In this document: piece by piece, positions 839 to 45,387 of the stretch
Numbering within the stretch: the first letter of the stretch is position 1
How the letters are laid out: every line of letters starts with the position of its first letter
NCBI GenBank assembly: GCA_016182095.1
Contig: JACOXY010000011.1
Coordinates: forward strand, 3,794-67,793
Reading direction: 5' to 3'
DNA: 64,000 bases
Source: Candidatus Liptonbacteria bacterium
Lineage (GTDB): Bacteria; Patescibacteriota; Minisyncoccia; UBA6257; JACOXY01
The notes under the pieces: generated by a model
What the model was told of the DNA's origin: nothing
Database searches by the model: none
What the model saw: only the letters and a program-made list of their open reading frames with translations
Position numbers and translations under genes: made by a program

Positions 839-938
839 TGTATTCTCCTTATCCACCAGAGCGCTGAAACTACAGTATCACGGCGACTTATTTAGTGCAA
901 TGGCATGGTAGCGTGCAACAACGGGCCAGCTCATGAAT

Positions 939-1017
939 CCACAACATTCCAACATTCTGCTCGCCATGCCGAAGCTTTATGCGAAGCGAAGGATGGCAGA
1001 ATGTTAGAATGTTGTGG
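939..1017. repeat. Family-1 palindromic element, copy A: 22 bp inverted arms (1 mismatch) around a 35 bp interior
   Basis: Left arm ccacaacattccaacattctgc and right arm gcagaatgttagaatgttgtgg match each other and the arms of copies at 2507, 2824 and 22178. It lies just upstream of the 599..838 gene. Confidence 0.8.
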
Positions 1018-1062
1018 AGTAAGCTGAAATATTAGATAGCCTTCTTCCTTCTCATTGGTTTT

Positions 1063-1596: not shown

Positions 1597-2519
1597 AGTT
1601 TTGAAAGCCGGTAAAACTCGCCGGAAATTTGTTTACCGCGTTTATCTGATTTACGATCTTCTTTTTGTTCTGGATCGCCGTATCCCTTATGATAACGTGT
1701 AGCAATAATGTCCAGATGGCGTAAAAGGTCAATATGCTCCGACCACAGGTCAATAACGAAACGTATGAATGCGGCGGCAAAAAAGATGTTGTGCTCTGGC
1801 AAAATGAGATAAGTGTAAAGGTGCGCGCGTCCGGCATTGGTAAGTCGCTTGTATGGCAATTTTTTGTCGGACAAATTTGGGTGATATATTCCTTTCTTTA
1901 TAAGGTCGTGCGCGGTATCTATTTTTACTTGCGCGAGACCAACTGACGCGTCATATCCAACTATTCGCGCGGCGAGTTCCGCAACCATATCCTTGAATGG
2001 CTCAATGCGTGCAATTTCGTCAATCAAAACCGCGCCCAAGAGATACGGATCAATGTCAAATTTCTCTGCCGCTTCAAATATCAGCAAGCGGTGCGGGACA
2101 AATTTTGCTTTGACTGCGGCTTTAAGTACTTTCGGCTGATTAACAGGCTCAATAAATGGCTGCCCTTCTTCAAGCGAAGCGATATATAGTTCGACGTATC
2201 TACTGAGTATTGGCGTGCTGTTCGCGTGGCGCGTGCCGTCCATAAACGCCAAAAGCGCGCGGCTCGTAATAGAAAGCTGGTCAAATTCATCCTGTTTTGA
2301 AATCTTTTGATTGGTGTGCAGATACGCTCCTGAAGCGCGCCTCACAACATGCGCGCCATATATTCCCCCTCTCGCTGCACGGTTAAGCGCCTCTTCAAGC
2401 GCAAACGCTTTCAGTGTATCCGAGGCGAAAGCAAGACTTTTTTTTCTTGTATCTGTTATGACTAAAATTATTTTAATGCTCATGCGCTTATTATATATCA
2501 TCTCACAACATTCTAACAT
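1578..2519 (-). CDS. hypothetical protein; start uncertain
   Basis: Long ORF. The annotated ATG at 2519 lies inside palindrome B, so the internal ATGs at 2501 or 2483 are more plausible starts. No clear family motif. Confidence 0.45.
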   Translation of the reverse strand: MLECCEMIYNKRMSIKIILVITDTRKKSLAFASDTLKAFALEEALNRAARGGIYGAHVVRRASGAYLHTNQKISKQDEFDQLSITSRALLAFMDGTRHANSTPILSRYVELYIASLEEGQPFIEPVNQPKVLKAAVKAKFVPHRLLIFEAAEKFDIDPYLLGAVLIDEIARIEPFKDMVAELAARIVGYDASVGLAQVKIDTAHDLIKKGIYHPNLSDKKLPYKRLTNAGRAHLYTYLILPEHNIFFAAAFIRFVIDLWSEHIDLLRHLDIIATRYHKGYGDPEQKEDRKSDKRGKQISGEFYRLSKLWLQKK

Positions 2520-2540
2520 TCTGCAGAATGTTAGAATGTT
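2507..2540. repeat. Family-1 palindrome, copy B: perfect 34 bp palindrome aacattctaacattctgcagaatgttagaatgtt
   Basis: Perfect reverse-complement symmetry around a central ctgcag. It overlaps the stop of the ArsR-like gene and the annotated start of 1578..2519. Confidence 0.85.
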
Positions 2541-2797
2541 TGCATGAACTTAAAAAATGCTTTTCCGTAAGGAGAGAGCAGATGAGTTACCTCTCGGCCT
2601 CTGTATTTTTTATTTAAAAGACCAGCGTGAACAAGCGCGCGGGTGTGCTGGGAAATGGTTTTGAAGTTTCCGCCAAGTTTTTCCGTAATTTCAAAAACCG
2701 TGATTCCTTCATGTTTGTGAACGATATCAAGAATTGCAATGCGCCAGTGATTTGCCGCGCCTTTGAAATATCGCTCTAATTGCTTTGGTGTTTTCAT
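2531..2797 (-). CDS. ArsR/SmtB-family winged-helix transcriptional regulator
   Basis: HWRIAILDIV...ITVFEITEKLGGNFKTISQHTRALVHAGLL matches the ArsR helix-turn-helix and wing. The gene is flanked on both sides by Family-1 palindromes. Confidence 0.65.
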   Translation of the reverse strand: MKTPKQLERYFKGAANHWRIAILDIVHKHEGITVFEITEKLGGNFKTISQHTRALVHAGLLNKKYRGREVTHLLSPYGKAFFKFMQTF

Positions 2798-2823: not shown

Positions 2824-2857
2824 AATATTCCAACATTCTGCAGAATGTTGGAATATT
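2824..2857. repeat. Family-1 palindrome, copy C: perfect 34 bp palindrome aatattccaacattctgcagaatgttggaatatt
   Basis: Perfect palindrome located between the stop of the GT4 gene (2859) and the start of the regulator gene (2797). Confidence 0.85.
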
Positions 2858-4130: not shown

Positions 4131-5087
4131 CTAACGCACTATTCCCATCTTTCTTAAAATATTTACCAGCAATTTTGTTGGATAAAAGATCCAGTTCACG
4201 CTCAATACATAATCGCGAAACCAACGGTAGCGCGTCATATGGTTCATAGTCCTAATTGCCCAATCAAGATGGGCTGGCTTAAAATCAGCCCAGTCGCGCA
4301 TAAAATCCATATCAAGTTCTATTTCTTCCTCTTTGAAACTCCCCTGCTTTGCCGCATAAGCGAGAGTCACATGCTTCGCCTTATTTGGATCAAGACCCAC
4401 CAATCTCATGGCAGTCGCATCAAGCGCGACAGGATCGGTGCTCCCCAAAATAATATCAAGCGAGCGAGGACGGCCATTGGTAGGCCCCCTATCATCCATG
4501 CCGATTATTCCGTCCATTATGCAAAGCTTTGGTTTAAGCAAGCCATTAATATCAACGATTAAGCTATCAAGAGAGTGATGGAGCGCGATCCTGTCGTGTC
4601 TCGGCACGCATCCCCATTGGTTTTTTAGAGAGCCGGTAAAATAGGTTAAGGCGTGCGTCTTTAACTTAGGCATGGTTATAAATACATCCGCATCTAAAAC
4701 AATTTCTGGCATTGGTCCTAAAAGTTTGTTGCCCACATCACGCGCCTGGCTTTTAGAAAGATTGACAACTTTAACTCCGAGCTTATCGGCAAGTTCGTAA
4801 ATCTTCGTGCTTTTAAAAGCTGCCTCCGCAGGCGCACGATATGAGTGCGCCTCAACCAGCGTGATGTTTTTGGTCTGCCCTTTGAGTTTACCTACGAGCG
4901 CGTAAATTACCTTCGGGTCCGTATTCGCATTGCATACTTTTTTCGCGTCAAACTCACAGAGATTAAGCTTAATAACCACCCGCGCGCTGGGTTTTACAAT
5001 TTCTTTCCAGTTCAGCTTCTCCAGAATACTCCGTACCGCCCCTTCTACGCCCTCGTTTTTTGTTGATCGGACTACTACGCGCGACAT
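4131..5087 (-). CDS. DUF362-like conserved protein
   Basis: The N-terminal pattern VVIKLNLCEFD...NANTDPKVIYALVGKL...ITLVEAHS resembles DUF362 family proteins; function unknown. Confidence 0.4.
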   Translation of the reverse strand: MSRVVVRSTKNEGVEGAVRSILEKLNWKEIVKPSARVVIKLNLCEFDAKKVCNANTDPKVIYALVGKLKGQTKNITLVEAHSYRAPAEAAFKSTKIYELADKLGVKVVNLSKSQARDVGNKLLGPMPEIVLDADVFITMPKLKTHALTYFTGSLKNQWGCVPRHDRIALHHSLDSLIVDINGLLKPKLCIMDGIIGMDDRGPTNGRPRSLDIILGSTDPVALDATAMRLVGLDPNKAKHVTLAYAAKQGSFKEEEIELDMDFMRDWADFKPAHLDWAIRTMNHMTRYRWFRDYVLSVNWIFYPTKLLVNILRKMGIVR

Positions 5088-5111
5088 AAAATCATTGAAT
5101 ATGGATGATTT

Positions 5112-5139
5112 ATCTCACACATAATATTATGTGTGAGAT
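5112..5139. promoter_or_regulatory. perfect 28 bp palindrome (hairpin or operator) between hicA and the DUF362-like gene
   Basis: atctcacacataatattatgtgtgagat is a perfect palindrome followed by a T-rich stretch on the plus strand. It could be a terminator for the hicBA transcript or an operator. Confidence 0.35.
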
Positions 5140-5373
5140 TTATTTTCCAAGCCATTCGTTCTTAGGAATTCCAGATTGCGCAATAATTCCTTTTAGAGTT
5201 CTGGGTTTCAACGCTCGCGCACCGTGAAAAGGCACGCTAACCTGCCGAAAAATGCCGCCGTATTTACCAACATAATAAAAATGGCTGCCGCGTGTATGAT
5301 TGTGCACAAAGCCACGATCTTTCAAAAAGCGCACAGCATCTTCGGCAGTCCAATTGTATAAACCACGCGGCAT
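5140..5373 (-). CDS. hicA: HicA-family toxin (mRNA interferase, YcfA-like)
   Basis: 77 aa with AEDAVRFLKDRGF...TRGSHFYY...VPFHGARALKPRTLKGIIAQSGI, which matches the HicA/YcfA fold signature. Confidence 0.7.
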   Translation of the reverse strand: MPRGLYNWTAEDAVRFLKDRGFVHNHTRGSHFYYVGKYGGIFRQVSVPFHGARALKPRTLKGIIAQSGIPKNEWLGK

Positions 5374-6146: not shown

Positions 6147-8024
6147 TTAGATTTCTCTAACTAATATAAAATTTTCCAAAACCAACACATCCATCTTAGT
6201 CCTTAAAAAACAATCTATCGCTTCCTGTGGTTTATTTACAATCGGTTCATTTTCGTTAAAGGAGGTATTGAGCAAAATCGGCACGCCGGTAATCTGCCTA
6301 AAGGCGTCAATGAGCTGCCAGTAAAGAGGATTTTCTTTTTTGGACACGGTCTGTAGGCGCCCCGTACCGTCGGCATGCGTTACTGCGGGAATTTTCGCGC
6401 GCATTTCCGGTTTTATGGTATAAACTTTTTCCATAAAAGGCACTGCTGGAAAACCAATTTGGAGAGGTCGTACCTCCCCTGGAGGAACGACCTCCGCACC
6501 GCGCGGATCCAAAAAGTAGTCGCTAACATATTCCTCTAAAATTGATGGCGCAAACGGGCGAAAGCTTTCCCGTTTTTTTATTTTCAAATTTAAAATATCC
6601 TTCATGTCCGGCCGCGCAGGATTCGCAAGGATACTCCTATTCCCTAAAGCGCGCGGACCCCATTCGGTGCGCCCCTGAAACCAACCAACAATTTTGCCTT
6701 CCGCAAGCAGTTGCGCTGTTTTTTGTATAAGCATAGTTTCACCCAACTCCTGGACATCGCAAGTCCTAAGGACTTGCGATGTCCTTATATTGGCATCCAA
6801 AATGCTTTTAATTTCGCCATTATGATATTCCGGTCCCCAATAGGAGTGGACCATCGTAAAATTGCGTTCTTTATTCAAAATCTGATTCCAAACGTAAAAT
6901 GCCGCGCCTAAAGCTCCTCCGGCATCGTAGCCGGCTGGCTGAATAAAAACTTCTTTAAACGGAGAGTTTTTGAATATCTGACCGTTTGCCAAACTATTCT
7001 GCGCGGTACCTCCGGCAAAACAAAGATTTGTGCTCCTCGTTTCCTTGTGGAGTTTGTTAAGCAGAGCAAAAAAAACTTCTTCGTATATCGCCTGCGCGGA
7101 GGCGGCAATGTCTTTGTGCTTTTGGGTAAGCTCTGCGCTCTCTTCTCTGCTCGGCCCCAAAAGATCTTCTAACTTATTTGAGTAAAGCTTAGATAATTCC
7201 GGATATCCGCCCTCCCATGCCATTTTTACCTCGCCTTTTGCATGTAAAAAATATTCTTGGCTCAATTCAAAGATACCAGCGGCAGCGCTTCGACTTTGCT
7301 CAGCGGCTAAATTGTTAGCTCCTAAGCCCGTCGCAGAACTTCCCCTGTCTAGTTTTATACGCACAATTTCGCGCATTTCTTTCAGATATTTCGGCTTTCC
7401 AAAAGCCGCGAGCCCCATGACCTTATATTCATCGCCAAATTTCCAAAATCCCAAGAATTGTGTAATCGCAGTGTAAAAAAAACCGATAGAATCCGGATAA
7501 TTAATCTCTCCTAAAATTTTCATCTTATTTCCTTCGCCAACCCCCCACATAGCGCTTGAAAAATCTCCCATACCGTCAACCGAGAGAAGTGCCGCTTCCT
7601 CAAAGGGGGAAACAAAAAACGCGGAGGCAAGATGCGCAAGGTGATGCGAGATATTATAAAACTTAGCGCTAATCTGCGACTCCTTAATACCCAAAGCTTT
7701 GGCGAGTTCTTCCTTAACACCGACAACCTTGCGCTTATTTACAAATCTATTCCAAAGAGAGCGGAAACTTGGAAGGTTTTTCAACACAAACCAGATTTTT
7801 TTCCAATAGTTAGCCTTCGGGTCGCGATTCAAGGCAATATGCGAAACATCTTGAATGCGAATCCCGGCAAAATCCAAACAAAACTTAATAGACTCGCTAG
7901 GGAATCCGGCCCAATGCTTTACACGTCTAATACGCTCCTCTTCAATGGCAGCGACGAGCTTGCCATCTTTTATCAAACACGCGGCGGAATCGGCATGATA
8001 GGCGTTTATGCCAAGTACGTACAT
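6147..8024 (-). CDS. O-carbamoyltransferase (NodU/CmcH/NovN family)
   Basis: N-terminus MYVLGINAYHADSAACL..., then WGPRALGNRSILANP, NTSFNENEPIV and AVTHADGTGRLQTV, all hallmark blocks of CmcH_NodU carbamoyltransferases. Confidence 0.85.
   Translation of the reverse strand: MYVLGINAYHADSAACLIKDGKLVAAIEEERIRRVKHWAGFPSESIKFCLDFAGIRIQDVSHIALNRDPKANYWKKIWFVLKNLPSFRSLWNRFVNKRKVVGVKEELAKALGIKESQISAKFYNISHHLAHLASAFFVSPFEEAALLSVDGMGDFSSAMWGVGEGNKMKILGEINYPDSIGFFYTAITQFLGFWKFGDEYKVMGLAAFGKPKYLKEMREIVRIKLDRGSSATGLGANNLAAEQSRSAAAGIFELSQEYFLHAKGEVKMAWEGGYPELSKLYSNKLEDLLGPSREESAELTQKHKDIAASAQAIYEEVFFALLNKLHKETRSTNLCFAGGTAQNSLANGQIFKNSPFKEVFIQPAGYDAGGALGAAFYVWNQILNKERNFTMVHSYWGPEYHNGEIKSILDANIRTSQVLRTCDVQELGETMLIQKTAQLLAEGKIVGWFQGRTEWGPRALGNRSILANPARPDMKDILNLKIKKRESFRPFAPSILEEYVSDYFLDPRGAEVVPPGEVRPLQIGFPAVPFMEKVYTIKPEMRAKIPAVTHADGTGRLQTVSKKENPLYWQLIDAFRQITGVPILLNTSFNENEPIVNKPQEAIDCFLRTKMDVLVLENFILVREI
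6752..6784. repeat. Family-2 palindrome, copy 1 (16 bp arms), in-frame inside the carbamoyltransferase CDS
   Basis: ggacatcgcaagtcct-a-aggacttgcgatgtcc. A near-identical 34 bp copy lies intergenic at 45354..45387. Confidence 0.75.
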
Positions 8025-21508: not shown

Positions 21509-22915
21509 TTATGGAAGCCAGTTGTTCCTGAATTTGTTTTCGTTTTTACTAATTTTCTCGAAGAGGGCAGTAACGCGAGAAGCCGATAATTCATGATTAA
21601 CATGCAGGTGGATGTAAAGCTGGTCCACAAGATAAAGCAGAAAAAAGTAATAAGCATCGCCTTTTTCTATATTCCAAAACTTGAGCATGCAGTCTAAAAT
21701 GCTTTGAATCTTAGTATTTTTTATAAAAAATAAATCTTGGATATTTCGTTCATATAACTCCACATAATTACCTTTTTTAAATCTACCGCCGCTTATTATC
21801 AAACTGTACAAATCGAAAATCTGCGGGAAGCCAAATCTCGCCTGCTCCCAGTCTATGACAAAAAACTTAGAACTTAGAACATTGAACATTGAACTGCTGG
21901 GGGCGGCAACACAAAGCATCTCAAAAAATGGAAACTCTCTCTTGGTAAGAGAAAAAATAAATGATTTGCTGTTTAAATTATCAACAGCTTTATCAAAAAA
22001 ATATTTTATCGACTTAAATCGTTCGTTGCTCATTTTTGATTGCAAAAATGAGAGTTCGCTTTGTATTTCGTTATAAAAATTAGATTCAGTAAAAATCTTT
22101 TCCTCTTTGGTTTTATCTGATAGTTTTTTTAAAAAATCAAGGTGGCAATTTTTAATAGCATCAATCCCGCGCGTACCACCAAACATTCCAACATTCTGCC
22201 CTAATTGGCCGAGCCAACGGGCTTTAGGCCCTAATTGGCCGAGCCAACGGGCTTTAGGCCCTAATTGGCCGAGCCAACGGGCTTTAGGCCCTAATTGGCC
22301 GAGCCAACGGGCTTTAGGCAGAATGTTGGAATGTTTGGTCTCTGATGATGGTGGTGGTGGGGAGAGAATTATGACAAGCGCTCCGCGAAAATAATCTTTG
22401 GCGAGTACCCGAGGAAAAGAAAATCCTGGTATATCTAATTTTTGTAAATAATCGAGGATTTTGGCTTCGTTCTCGCCATAAATCTCGCTTTCACGGCCAG
22501 GAAAATAAACTTTAGCGACACTCAAAAGCTTGCCGCTTTTTTCGCCAAAAATGGGAAGTATATATTTTCTGGAACCGGAGTAAACTGAAAAAGTGACCGG
22601 CTCTTCGAATTTGGTTTTAGAGGCGAGAAAAGAAAAAATCTCTTCGTTTTTGTCTACAAAAACTTTTTTTCTAAAAACAAACCACCAAACAAAATCAAGA
22701 TTAAAAATCCTTAAAAGAGTTATTTTGGCCTTACTCCAAAAATCTTTGCCTTTGTAAAGATAAAATTCTCTTAATGCGGCGGCTCGGAGATGCTTCGCGC
22801 CAAAAGGCAAAGCCACTCCGCTTTTTAAAAATTCACCGCTTAGCACCACGAATCGCGCCTCGCTAAAGCTACGAGATTTTTTTATATCTACTTTCTCAAA
22901 CAAATTCCACGGCAT
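21509..22915 (-). CDS. choline/aminoglycoside-kinase-like (APH-fold) protein carrying an in-frame 54-codon repeat insertion
   Basis: FFVIDWEQARFGFPQIFDL resembles the IDxE...FD block of choline kinase/APH. The expected HxDxxxxN catalytic motif is not evident. A 4x GPKARWLGQL repeat is encoded by the Family-1 element. Confidence 0.45.
   Translation of the reverse strand: MPWNLFEKVDIKKSRSFSEARFVVLSGEFLKSGVALPFGAKHLRAAALREFYLYKGKDFWSKAKITLLRIFNLDFVWWFVFRKKVFVDKNEEIFSFLASKTKFEEPVTFSVYSGSRKYILPIFGEKSGKLLSVAKVYFPGRESEIYGENEAKILDYLQKLDIPGFSFPRVLAKDYFRGALVIILSPPPPSSETKHSNILPKARWLGQLGPKARWLGQLGPKARWLGQLGPKARWLGQLGQNVGMFGGTRGIDAIKNCHLDFLKKLSDKTKEEKIFTESNFYNEIQSELSFLQSKMSNERFKSIKYFFDKAVDNLNSKSFIFSLTKREFPFFEMLCVAAPSSSMFNVLSSKFFVIDWEQARFGFPQIFDLYSLIISGGRFKKGNYVELYERNIQDLFFIKNTKIQSILDCMLKFWNIEKGDAYYFFLLYLVDQLYIHLHVNHELSASRVTALFEKISKNENKFRNNWLP
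22178..22339. repeat. Family-1 palindromic element, copy D: 23 bp perfect inverted arms around 4 x 30 bp tandem repeats (162 bp total), in-frame within a CDS
   Basis: Arms accaaacattccaacattctgcc / ggcagaatgttggaatgtttggt. The interior is (ctaattggccgagccaacgggctttaggcc)x4. Its length is a multiple of 3 and the host ORF stays open. Confidence 0.85.
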
Positions 22916-34358: not shown

Positions 34359-35921
34359 ATGATAAATTCTCAAAATATCAAGCCTTTTTTTATTTTTTCT
34401 GCAATAACAATAATTGCCGTGTCGTTTTTAATAGCGGGTTTTAATGTGTACCCTCCTCCATCCGGGAACTCCTCGCTCTTTGTTCCGCCGGCAATAAATT
34501 TAGCCGCAGGCAACGGCCTAATAGACGATCTAAGCCACATACGCCTAAACCAAACTAAGGACGCTCGATTTATTTCTTATCCGCCATTGTATCCGGTTCT
34601 TTTAAGTATATTGATGCCAAGGACGGATTCCATTGGCGCCTTTGTCGCAATCGCGGTAATGGAAATTTTAATCATAAGCTTCACGGCCTTAATTCTCTAC
34701 AAAATCCTAAGAACCACCGGGGATAACGGGGAAATTTCCTGGTTTAATATTTTAATAATAATTTTTAGTATTTTTGCTATTGCGGGCCCCCTATTAAATT
34801 ACAACGGCACCAGACCTGAAATTGTTTTCCAGCTAATCTCGGTGGCATGGATAATGTCTGTGATATATTTAACGCGCCACAAAAATTTATGGATGTTATT
34901 GGGAATAATTATTGGGGCTGGTTTGGCCACACATCCCTTGCACGGTTTTTATTTTTCAATTTTATCCGCATTGCTTTTTTCCTATGTCACGAATACTAAA
35001 TCGGCGATTAATAACATCCTGAGGGCGGGCGTACTGGGTGTTTTAGTTTTCTTGTTAATTTTAGCTCTCTCTCCACATGGCGCGCTTGATTATCTAAACG
35101 GAATGCGCGACATGGCATTTAGATATGCGAGCACCATGATATTTTGGACCGGATCGTCGCCCCTCACTGGTTTCGAGAGTCCGCTAAACACATACGGACA
35201 AGATTTGCTGCGTTATCTGGTGTTGAGTCCGGCAAGCTTTTTCTGGGGGCCATTTGTATTATTTGTTTTGATTTTAGCGGCGAAAAACTACAAAAGGTTA
35301 AATTCGGGTATAAAATCTCCCCATTTATTCTATTTGTTTTTATTCGTTTTTTTAGCAGTGATGAGCGGCATTATTTTTCTGGGGCATGCTGACAGTATTT
35401 ATTATTTGACCATGCTTGGTTCAATATTCGTAGTAATTGCATCTTATTTAGTATCGAAAGAGAAAGTTTTCGGTCGCGTAGTTTTATTTATGCTTCTGGC
35501 TACCATGAGCATTAGCTCTCTAAGGGTCTTTGTTTTAATGCCATTTTATTTTTTGGACGGAGTCAGAATCAGTGAGGCGAGGAATATTATTGAAAACTTA
35601 AATTTGCCGGATTGCGATGATTGCGTCGGAATATCACCGGCAAACCTATGGGTACTTTCGGAAAATTATCCTTCAATAATAACCGAGCTTCAGGCGGAGC
35701 GAACAGGAGAAAATTTGGGGAAGACAGCCAAAATAATACTTTTGGGACAGCACGGTTCGAGTCTCATGGAGCCCCCAAAAGAAATAAAGGGATGCCAAAT
35801 AGAAAAAGATTACTTTGCTAAAGAAAAACCTCCAAGCTTTTTTGGCATCAAAATAGCCAATATTATCCCCGGCCATGGTTTTGCCGTCTATGAGTGTGAG
35901 ATACAAACAAAATCAATTTAG
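34359..35921 (+). CDS. polytopic membrane protein with C-terminal soluble domain, paralog 2 of 19908..21491
   Basis: N-terminal block NVYPPPSGNSSLFVPPAINLAAGNGLIDDLS aligns with paralog 1; more than 10 hydrophobic helices. Confidence 0.45.
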   Translation: MINSQNIKPFFIFSAITIIAVSFLIAGFNVYPPPSGNSSLFVPPAINLAAGNGLIDDLSHIRLNQTKDARFISYPPLYPVLLSILMPRTDSIGAFVAIAVMEILIISFTALILYKILRTTGDNGEISWFNILIIIFSIFAIAGPLLNYNGTRPEIVFQLISVAWIMSVIYLTRHKNLWMLLGIIIGAGLATHPLHGFYFSILSALLFSYVTNTKSAINNILRAGVLGVLVFLLILALSPHGALDYLNGMRDMAFRYASTMIFWTGSSPLTGFESPLNTYGQDLLRYLVLSPASFFWGPFVLFVLILAAKNYKRLNSGIKSPHLFYLFLFVFLAVMSGIIFLGHADSIYYLTMLGSIFVVIASYLVSKEKVFGRVVLFMLLATMSISSLRVFVLMPFYFLDGVRISEARNIIENLNLPDCDDCVGISPANLWVLSENYPSIITELQAERTGENLGKTAKIILLGQHGSSLMEPPKEIKGCQIEKDYFAKEKPPSFFGIKIANIIPGHGFAVYECEIQTKSI

Positions 35922-36195
35922 CGGAGCGAATTTACTAAATATGCGAGGCGCGAGGAGGAGATTAGTAGCCAAGAGCTACAGCTCCGACGATAAACGAGGC
36001 AGATTTAGGAAATGCGCCCGCCCAGGAGGGGAAGCTCAAAAATTGCTGATTTCTTTGTTACTCCTCCTTAATGTATTCTCCGAATACAATTTCGTCGTCA
36101 TGCCTTGAAATCATCTAATTTTTGAACTTCTAAATTTGATTTTGTTTGTATCTCACACTCATATAAGTGCGGGCAATGAATTGCTTTAAAAAAAC

Positions 36196-45353: not shown

Positions 45354-45387
45354 GGACATCGCAAGTCCTTAAGGACTTGCGATGTCC
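45354..45387. repeat. Family-2 palindrome, copy 2: perfect 34 bp palindrome ggacatcgcaagtccttaaggacttgcgatgtcc (intergenic)
   Basis: Perfect palindrome whose arms are identical to the copy at 6752..6784 inside the carbamoyltransferase CDS. Confidence 0.8.

Follow-up and report, generated by a model that had tools for sequence, protein, structure and literature searches.

We analyzed a 162-bp palindromic element that is inserted in frame into a kinase-like gene within a 64,000-nt stretch of Candidatus Liptonbacteria DNA (NCBI GenBank assembly GCA_016182095.1, contig JACOXY010000011.1, positions 3,794 to 67,793 of the forward strand; referred to as the window throughout). With a probability that we put at roughly 60%, this feature is a nested, non-autonomous palindromic repeat that is tolerated by its host protein as a disordered loop and was later enlarged by an insertion at its centre and by slippage expansion. 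The recurring unit is not the 162 bp as a whole, it is a palindrome of 34-42 bp (AACATTCYAACATTCTGCAGAATGTTRGAATGTT). This palindrome is arranged like the operator of a conserved gene for a winged helix-turn-helix (wHTH) protein of the ArsR family, so that, judging from sequence, it would not be just anonymous selfish DNA.

The element (22178..22339, minus strand, host codons 193-246) consists of a split palindrome with a central tandem array. Its left arm (ACCAAACATTCCAACATTCTGCC, 22178..22200, with the family core at 22182-22199) and its right arm (GGCAGAATGTTGGAATGTTTGGT, 22317..22339, with the core at 22318-22335) are 23 nt long each, 100% complementary and 116 nt apart, giving a total of 162 bp or 54 codons. 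The array (22198..22317) comprises four perfect 30-bp units that read PKARWLGQLG x4 on the minus strand, and Tandem Repeats Finder reported a period of 30 bp, 4.1 copies and 100% matches at 22198-22319. The arm comparison and the repeat finder thus agree with the anatomy given in the original prediction, including the in-frame position within the open reading frame (ORF) 21509..22915. Four exact copies of the unit (GCCCTAATTGGCCGAGCCAACGGGCTTTAG) were present where none would be expected by chance. Each unit forms a small hairpin (CCCTAA-TTGGC-cga-GCCAA-..-TTAGG), and the array is placed exactly at the dyad of the palindrome (CTGC..GCAG). The element encodes TKHSNIL(PKARWLGQLG)x4QNVGMFG. Folded as single-stranded DNA, the element reached -57.9 kcal/mol (z = -9.6 versus shuffles). 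Direct reading of the six frames of the 30-bp unit revealed just one open frame per strand, so an open insertion in frame is not automatic. The units are contiguous, identical and free of spacers, unlike CRISPR or TIGR-type arrays with their unique spacers between repeats. A search against Rfam returned nothing at the gathering threshold across the window and only chance-level matches at E values up to 10 in 22100-22420. A (CCA)4(TCA)2 microsatellite directly adjoins the element at 22340-22362; it encodes PPPPSS, about four residues more than in homologues.

The host ORF (21509..22915, minus strand) encodes 468 amino acids, is located in a glycan-biosynthesis gene cluster and is identical to NCBI HYT12_01905, a hypothetical protein on a 134-kb contig of a Candidatus Liptonbacteria metagenome-assembled genome (MAG). 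Since a Pfam search of this protein gave no match, a fold search was needed. Foldseek comparison of the host model with the PDB identified APH(2'') structures (probability 1.00, E value 2e-6), and a Pfam APH match was present on one homologue, in agreement with the proposed APH/choline-kinase-like or, more broadly, protein-kinase-like fold. The degenerate catalytic motif that had been suspected is real as well, and it is family-wide: the HxDxxxxN catalytic loop is absent from all members, with REF...IDWE kept in its place. This degeneracy is therefore a trait of the family and not a consequence of the insertion.

Fifteen homologues of the host protein exist, mostly of about 405 amino acids, and among the 13 that were aligned, 12 exhibited a gap in place of the 54-residue segment, which is the outcome expected for an insertion relative to orthologues. 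The exception was P0003, which carries KHSNILQNVGMF at the same position; the underlying DNA (4581-4614 of locus L120) is an intact, unsplit 34-bp palindrome. The palindromes of P0003 and the window share the codon position and the 42-nt extent and differ in their outer bases (ACA...TGT versus ACC...GGT) by one symmetric double change that is synonymous on one side and exchanges Gly for Cys on the other. While the 300-nt flanks of the two genes are 63-66% identical, the palindrome core is identical at 34/34 positions. In an AlphaFold2 model built on the alignment, predicted local distance difference test (pLDDT) values dropped below 50 at residues 190-251, with about 30 for the insert, compared to 85-97 on either side. 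This segment sits between the last strand of the N-lobe (179-184) and the first helix of the C-lobe (256-269), and the model thus places the insert in a predicted disordered surface loop between the two lobes of the APH-like kinase fold, the kind of location that the original prediction had proposed modelling for. Elsewhere in the same ORF, a heptamer tandem repeat (GTTCAAT GTTCAAT GTTCTAA GTTCTAA, window 21866-21900, minus-strand codons ~338-349) encodes SSSMFNVLSSK, about nine extra residues in the region of the catalytic loop that are common to the closest homologue P0002 only, with low pLDDT at residues 341-347. The AATGTT heptads of the palindrome arms are similar to this repeat but are spaced by 8 nt and not by 7 nt.

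The palindrome family was defined by searching a set of genomes, one for each species, with AACATTCYAACATTCTGC as the query. This search yielded at least 119 loci of 8 kb each, and the family counts given here rest on these loci. Its 34-bp core is composed of AACATTCYAACATTCTGC followed directly by GCAGAATGTTRGAATGTT and is extended to 42 bp in the window by ACCA/TGGT; the family consensus is (AC)AACATTCC...GGAATGTT(GT), with a core built of four AACATTC heptads. Among the loci listed were those of Saccharibacteria, many Parcubacteria lineages as well as Kiritimatiellia, Verrucomicrobia and Lentisphaerae MAGs. Local GC content in these loci of Patescibacteria and the Planctomycetes-Verrucomicrobia-Chlamydiae (PVC) group ranged from 27 to 60% overall and from 52 to 60% in the Kiritimatiellia, Verrucomicrobia and Lentisphaerae MAGs. 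Allowing for mismatches, at least 152 non-redundant 34-bp palindromes were identified, 89 of the 152 being perfectly symmetric, and 138 of the 147 arm pairs among the loci listed were unsplit with the centre CTGCAG. A rough estimate of about 140 single-arm matches expected by chance explains the lone arms encountered in unrelated taxa; adjacent arm pairs are not attributable to chance. The element is accordingly not unique to its locus, and its arms are part of a large dispersed family. Of the three further window palindromes to which the same arms had been ascribed, all (938-1018, 2507-2540 and 2824-2857) share the 17-18-nt core AACATTCYAACATTCTGC, while the full 23-nt arm, with up to three mismatches allowed, was detected at the locus itself only.

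Changes in the 152 copies affected both arms symmetrically in 65 cases and one side only in 110 cases, which is far too many symmetric changes for independent mutation. Pairing continued for at least 2 bp past the core in 43% of the copies, compared to about 6% expected. Binding of the repressor and hairpin-templated (quasipalindrome) correction, alone or together, could explain the symmetry and the invariance across phyla. The palindrome was not found in IMG/VR viral contigs or PLSDB plasmids, and INPHARED phages gave chance-level matches alone. Searches of the accessible literature by exact sequence and by keyword combinations retrieved no paper describing the palindrome repeat, and the element apparently belongs to a repeat family without prior description. 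MAG contigs were often observed to begin or end less than 50 nt from the palindrome or inside it (L020, L027, L045, L061, L074, L080, L119, L098, L077 and L021), and the palindrome appears to break short-read assemblies.

In-frame tolerance as known from the Rickettsia palindromic elements (RPEs), about which the original prediction had been cautious outside that lineage, turned out to be general for this family. Copies deep inside long ORFs accounted for 17 of 141 (~12%), and 9 of the 10 coding-copy hosts tested had a clear Pfam identity, namely PGK, TsaD, class II FBP aldolase (FBA), MiaA, a formyltransferase (Fmt-like), two FAD oxidases, a GT4 glycosyltransferase and an amidohydrolase. Compared to PDB homologues, PGK is longer by about 14 residues and FBA by 7 where the palindrome peptide is located. 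The majority of the 18 coding copies (15, P = 2e-5) were read in the frame HSNILQNVGM, the alternative frames being rich in Cys/Trp, and this bias argues that coding copies are translated and filtered by selection. The palindrome occupies matching positions in FAD oxidases of different MAGs, where it is read in the HSNIL frame (L030 7055-7088 and L083 1160-1193), and in Kiritimatiellia homologues, where it is read in the TTFQHSAECWNV frame (L031 4569-4602 and L084 7636-7669); the flanks in these two pairs are 56-83% identical and the core is nearly invariant.

The ORFs downstream of solo copies were diverse, with 175 ORFs falling into 144 clusters, and no enrichment of -10-like hexamers was observed at promoter spacing from these copies. 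A regulon was rejected as the general explanation, since the downstream genes do not cluster and a -10 box at promoter spacing is missing. Solo copies favoured the vicinity of gene ends (median distance 97 nt, compared to 222 nt for gene starts), some of them with A-tract/T-tract flanks.

Interruption at the dyad was not confined to the 162-bp element. Nine dyad-interrupted arm pairs were counted in the genome loci and the window (including overlapping pairings in L111), with interruptions of 6-118 nt. The clear cases were L022 (twice), L104, L105, L111 and the second split palindrome of the window, an intergenic copy at 938..1018 with 23-nt arms and a 35-nt GC-rich interior; interiors in these cases measured 22-118 nt. 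A metagenome scan added four split copies at different loci that share one GC-rich interior of 27-28 nt in both orientations. The interiors tend to extend the stem (CCT...AGG) and have CTGC and GCAG at their borders, a pattern that fits either a 2-bp GC duplication or outgrowth from the centre. The sequences IS1397 and ISKpn1 insert into the loops of repetitive extragenic palindromic (REP) sequences and the bacterial interspersed mosaic elements (BIMEs) that contain them, and palindromes undergo centre-break revision. The split copies resemble the IS1397/ISKpn1 insertions in that additions occur exactly at the dyad centre, but the additions described here are hairpin-like sequences of 22-118 nt without an insertion sequence (IS), and one of them is tandemly amplified in the window.

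Two unsplit copies of the family flank a gene in the window. This gene (2531..2797, minus strand) encodes an 88-aa protein; one palindrome (2824..2857) is located 27 nt upstream of its start codon and provides with its arm a TTGGAA -35-like box, making it the candidate operator/promoter copy, while the other (2507..2540), a T variant, extends over the final 10 nt of the gene, whose TAA stop it contributes. The same cassette was present in at least 29 loci, with 55-81% protein identity across phyla. Between the end of its upstream copy and the ATG there are 14-52 nt (mostly 24-37), and several loci exhibit a TTGGAA-17 nt-TATAAT-like box; the downstream T variant has a fixed offset of -10 from the gene end, where it supplies ...ACA TTC TAA. 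The inverted-repeat, operator-like layout over the gene's own promoter was seen in 22 of the 29 cassette loci. A profile search against PDB sequences matched the protein to HlyU (3e-13) as well as to CadC, CzrA, SmtB, NolR and AspA, its model shows the a1-a5 plus beta-wing topology (pLDDT 89), and Pfam matches to HTH_5, HTH_20 and MarR were just under the cut-offs. On these profile and model data the protein is assigned to the ArsR/SmtB winged-helix family. Public data contain 787 clusters of it at 90% identity, many on contigs of 0.5-1.5 kb.

Distant wHTH paralogues in the same loci are accompanied by different palindromes in the same upstream/stop-codon layout, and similar recognition helices go along with similar palindromes. 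This covariation together with the fixed layout is the signature of a specific protein-site pair, and binding of the palindrome by the wHTH protein is predicted. The paralogues with palindromes of their own were located in L028 (~1-330), L030 (~1480-1800), L015 (~2400-2750), L057 (~6400-6800) and L106 (~4520-4790); their palindromes, such as TATTCCAGTGTTTTGCAAAACACTGGAATA and TTCTCTAATTCGCTCGAATTAGAGAA, lie over the promoter upstream and over the stop codon downstream, and copies were found elsewhere too, for example in L092. The neighbours of the cassette were mostly unrelated, the only recurring ones being TspO (5 of 29 loci) and a PIF1-like helicase (6 loci). TspO/MBR-family genes were noted beside the cassette or palindrome in L002, L043, L079, L085 and L099 (and also in L022, 4749-5294), the TspO gene of L085 carrying an in-frame palindrome copy itself, and the PIF1-like helicase is immediately upstream of the cassette in several of its six loci.

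A broader proposal, which we advance tentatively, is that the AACATTC palindrome and the 88-aa protein constitute an undescribed operator-repressor module. The module or its solo site would spread within and between Patescibacteria and PVC genomes and colonise coding sequence as a translated "coding palindrome", with the symmetry and near-invariance of its sequence held by protein binding or hairpin-templated correction. The wHTH protein may itself help to copy the site, for instance if forks stall at palindromes to which it is bound. There is a substantial chance that the wHTH-palindrome pairing represents a new class and, if the proposal holds, the sister pairs of other specificities in L028, L030, L015, L057 and L106 would extend it to a whole class.

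For the 162-bp element, the favoured nested-repeat origin would involve three steps. A dispersed perfect palindrome would have entered the interlobe hinge loop of the APH-like kinase gene, adding 14 codons in the usually tolerated frame (T-K-HSNILQNVGM-F-G). The family it came from would be non-autonomous and similar to REP sequences and RPEs, its "master" copies presumably being the two operator-like sites that bracket the 88-aa ArsR-family repressor gene. A GC-rich, hairpin-forming sequence of ~28-30 nt would then have been added exactly at the dyad centre (CTGC^GCAG), as in a minority of the family, and four perfect copies of this 30-bp unit would subsequently have arisen, replication slippage being the most likely route. 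The identity of the four copies points to a recent local amplification and, as 30 bp correspond to 10 codons, the frame was kept. Tolerance of the 54 residues by the protein would be due to their forming a disordered loop at its surface.

Several observations weigh against this origin. Neighbour-joining does not group the two filled genes (window and P0003) as sisters, and their respective sisters, P0002 and P0004, are empty; such a tree requires two gains at one codon or else several precise losses. No pair of empty and filled sites at near-identical DNA was found. The 30-bp unit and the 4x30 array have no second copy or other relative in the window or 122 loci (BLAST), in IMG/VR (18-mer) or in JGI metagenome contigs (22-mer), and the array copy number of four is taken from a short-read MAG assembly. 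The core conservation across phyla and the excess of symmetric changes point to function or homogenisation, not neutral junk. Neither a transposase nor a recombinase linked to the palindromes was seen in the at least 119 8-kb loci and the 64-kb window. The target-site duplications (TSDs) for which the original prediction had proposed looking did not emerge, as flanking direct repeats of at least 3 bp were not in excess over a shifted control. Its description of the feature as a mobile selfish element stands in part: the element is dispersed and non-unique, while the recurring unit is 34-42 bp, the 4x30 array is a local secondary addition, the palindrome brackets a regulator, and mobility is read from distribution.

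Conservation of this kind would be accounted for if the intragenic palindromes served the ArsR-like repressor as working auxiliary operators or transcriptional roadblocks, in the manner of lac O2 in lacZ, and were kept by selection, the window copy then representing half-sites pushed 118 bp apart with the roadblock relieved. The filled host gene of L120 is indeed situated 700 bp upstream of a wHTH cassette, with three palindromes within 1.1 kb, and the invariant core between diverged flanks, the covariation of palindrome sequence and wHTH paralogue and the recurrence of TspO genes beside the cassette all agree with such a role. In the window, however, the wHTH gene is 19 kb from the element, solo copies adjoin unrelated genes (175 ORFs in 144 clusters) and lack a -10 box at promoter spacing, and operators usually arise by point mutation and not by insertions of 7-14 codons into housekeeping enzymes. 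We consider this explanation unlikely. The chances are slimmer still that the element acts at the RNA level, its hairpin with four sub-hairpins serving as a signal for mRNA processing, stability or termination or as an embedded small RNA, and the family representing a mobile hairpin of a terminator-like type, akin to SPRITE or REP sequences. The strong fold, the symmetric arm changes, the pairing beyond the core and the position of solo copies near gene ends with occasional A-tract/T-tract flanks would fit this explanation. The lack of an Rfam match, the lack of a U-tract after the window element on the sense strand and the frame bias of the coding copies, which indicates that they are read as protein, do not, and a perfect DNA palindrome equally signals cruciform DNA or the site of a dimeric protein.

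Split copies with the layout arm, interior, arm and the occurrence of one arm-plus-interior composite at four loci are reminiscent of miniature inverted-repeat transposable elements of a DDE transposon, in which case the arms would serve as terminal inverted repeats, an IS at another place in the genome would mobilise them in trans, and the unsplit palindromes would be minimal elements of two such repeats. This is very improbable given that there is no TSD, that neither a single-arm pair at IS-like spacing nor a transposase ORF nor a parent IS was detected in the loci or the window, and that the bracketed gene encodes a wHTH protein without a catalytic domain; IS-sized arm pairs were absent from the loci scanned and the repeats of L022 lack a transposase. 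We attach equally little credence to an assembly artefact, that is, a mis-join or an inflated repeat in a short-read MAG. Many MAG contigs stop at the palindrome or within it, contigs carrying the wHTH gene are often shorter than 1.5 kb, and a perfect 120-bp array is hard to size from 150-bp reads. On the other hand, the sequences on either side of the element encode the N- and C-lobes of a single protein family in collinear order and with the frame kept, the palindrome occupies the same codon in an assembly obtained independently (L120/L121, two data sources), and the source contig spans 134 kb. An integron attC site was dropped due to the perfect symmetry, an intein or intron due to the frame bias, a hairpin telomere due to the internal position in long contigs, and an uptake sequence due to the insertion signature.

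Among known systems, RPEs are ~100-150 bp long, imperfect and restricted to Rickettsia (Ogata et al. 2000/2002, summarised in PMC10969869). They share with the present family intergenic as well as in-frame copies in unrelated housekeeping genes, a conserved peptide at tolerant sites and the absence of a known transposase. The palindrome core described here differs from them by being 34-42 bp long, perfect, distributed over Patescibacteria and PVC genomes and also bracketing a regulator gene; the difference in length argues against RPE membership. Nematomorpha mitochondrial coding palindromes (PMC6649704) are likewise perfect inverted repeats in translated genes whose symmetry is kept despite a cost at the protein level, but they are gene-specific, long and arise in place, whereas here one repeat is spread across many genes and genomes.

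The REP/REPIN-RAYT system is comparable in its dispersed palindromes of 20-40 bp, which are mostly extragenic near gene ends, in the lack of a TSD and in copies that flank one dedicated gene. It differs in that the gene flanked here encodes an 88-aa ArsR-type protein and no Y1/HUH transposase, in that a GTAG/CGTC head is missing, and in that the present palindrome is found across phyla instead of being species-specific, with ~12% of the copies in coding sequence and 89 of 152 perfect. ArsR/SmtB repressors (CzrA, SmtB, HlyU and AspA of pNOB8) correspond in profile and fold, in a palindrome over their own -35 box and in paralogues with different palindromes, but not in the 34-bp perfect palindrome, the second copy over the stop codon or the sites scattered over the genome including coding sequence.

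In-frame palindromes of the RPE type have been treated as a peculiarity of Rickettsia, and the same behaviour is now apparent in the reduced genomes of the candidate phyla radiation (CPR), where it affects core enzymes such as PGK, TsaD, FBA and MiaA. This is relevant to the ways in which small genomes acquire new protein loops. The association of the repeat with a dedicated DNA-binding protein, and not with a transposase, offers a testable handle on the persistence or spread of such repeats, and the fragmentation of MAG assemblies at the palindrome is a practical matter for the reconstruction and annotation of CPR genomes.

Additional repeats were noted in the window. A second, unrelated family of perfect palindromes, GGACATCGCAAGTCCT(T)AAGGACTTGCGATGTCC, is represented at 6752-6784 and 45354-45387. 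One copy is intergenic and the other lies in frame (RTSQVLRTCDVQ) in a 625-aa carbamoyltransferase-like ORF (6147..8024, minus strand), with no clear insertion relative to PDB homologues. Between convergent genes, a 31-nt inverted repeat (35889-35919 and 36133-36163) exhibits 97% complementarity with the arms 213 nt apart, and its left arm reaches into the end of ORF 34359..35921. The motif GTGTGAGAT/ATCTCACAC is present in this repeat (35889-36163), in a 48-bp palindrome at 5102-5149 and at 2497-2504, beside the palindrome at 2507.

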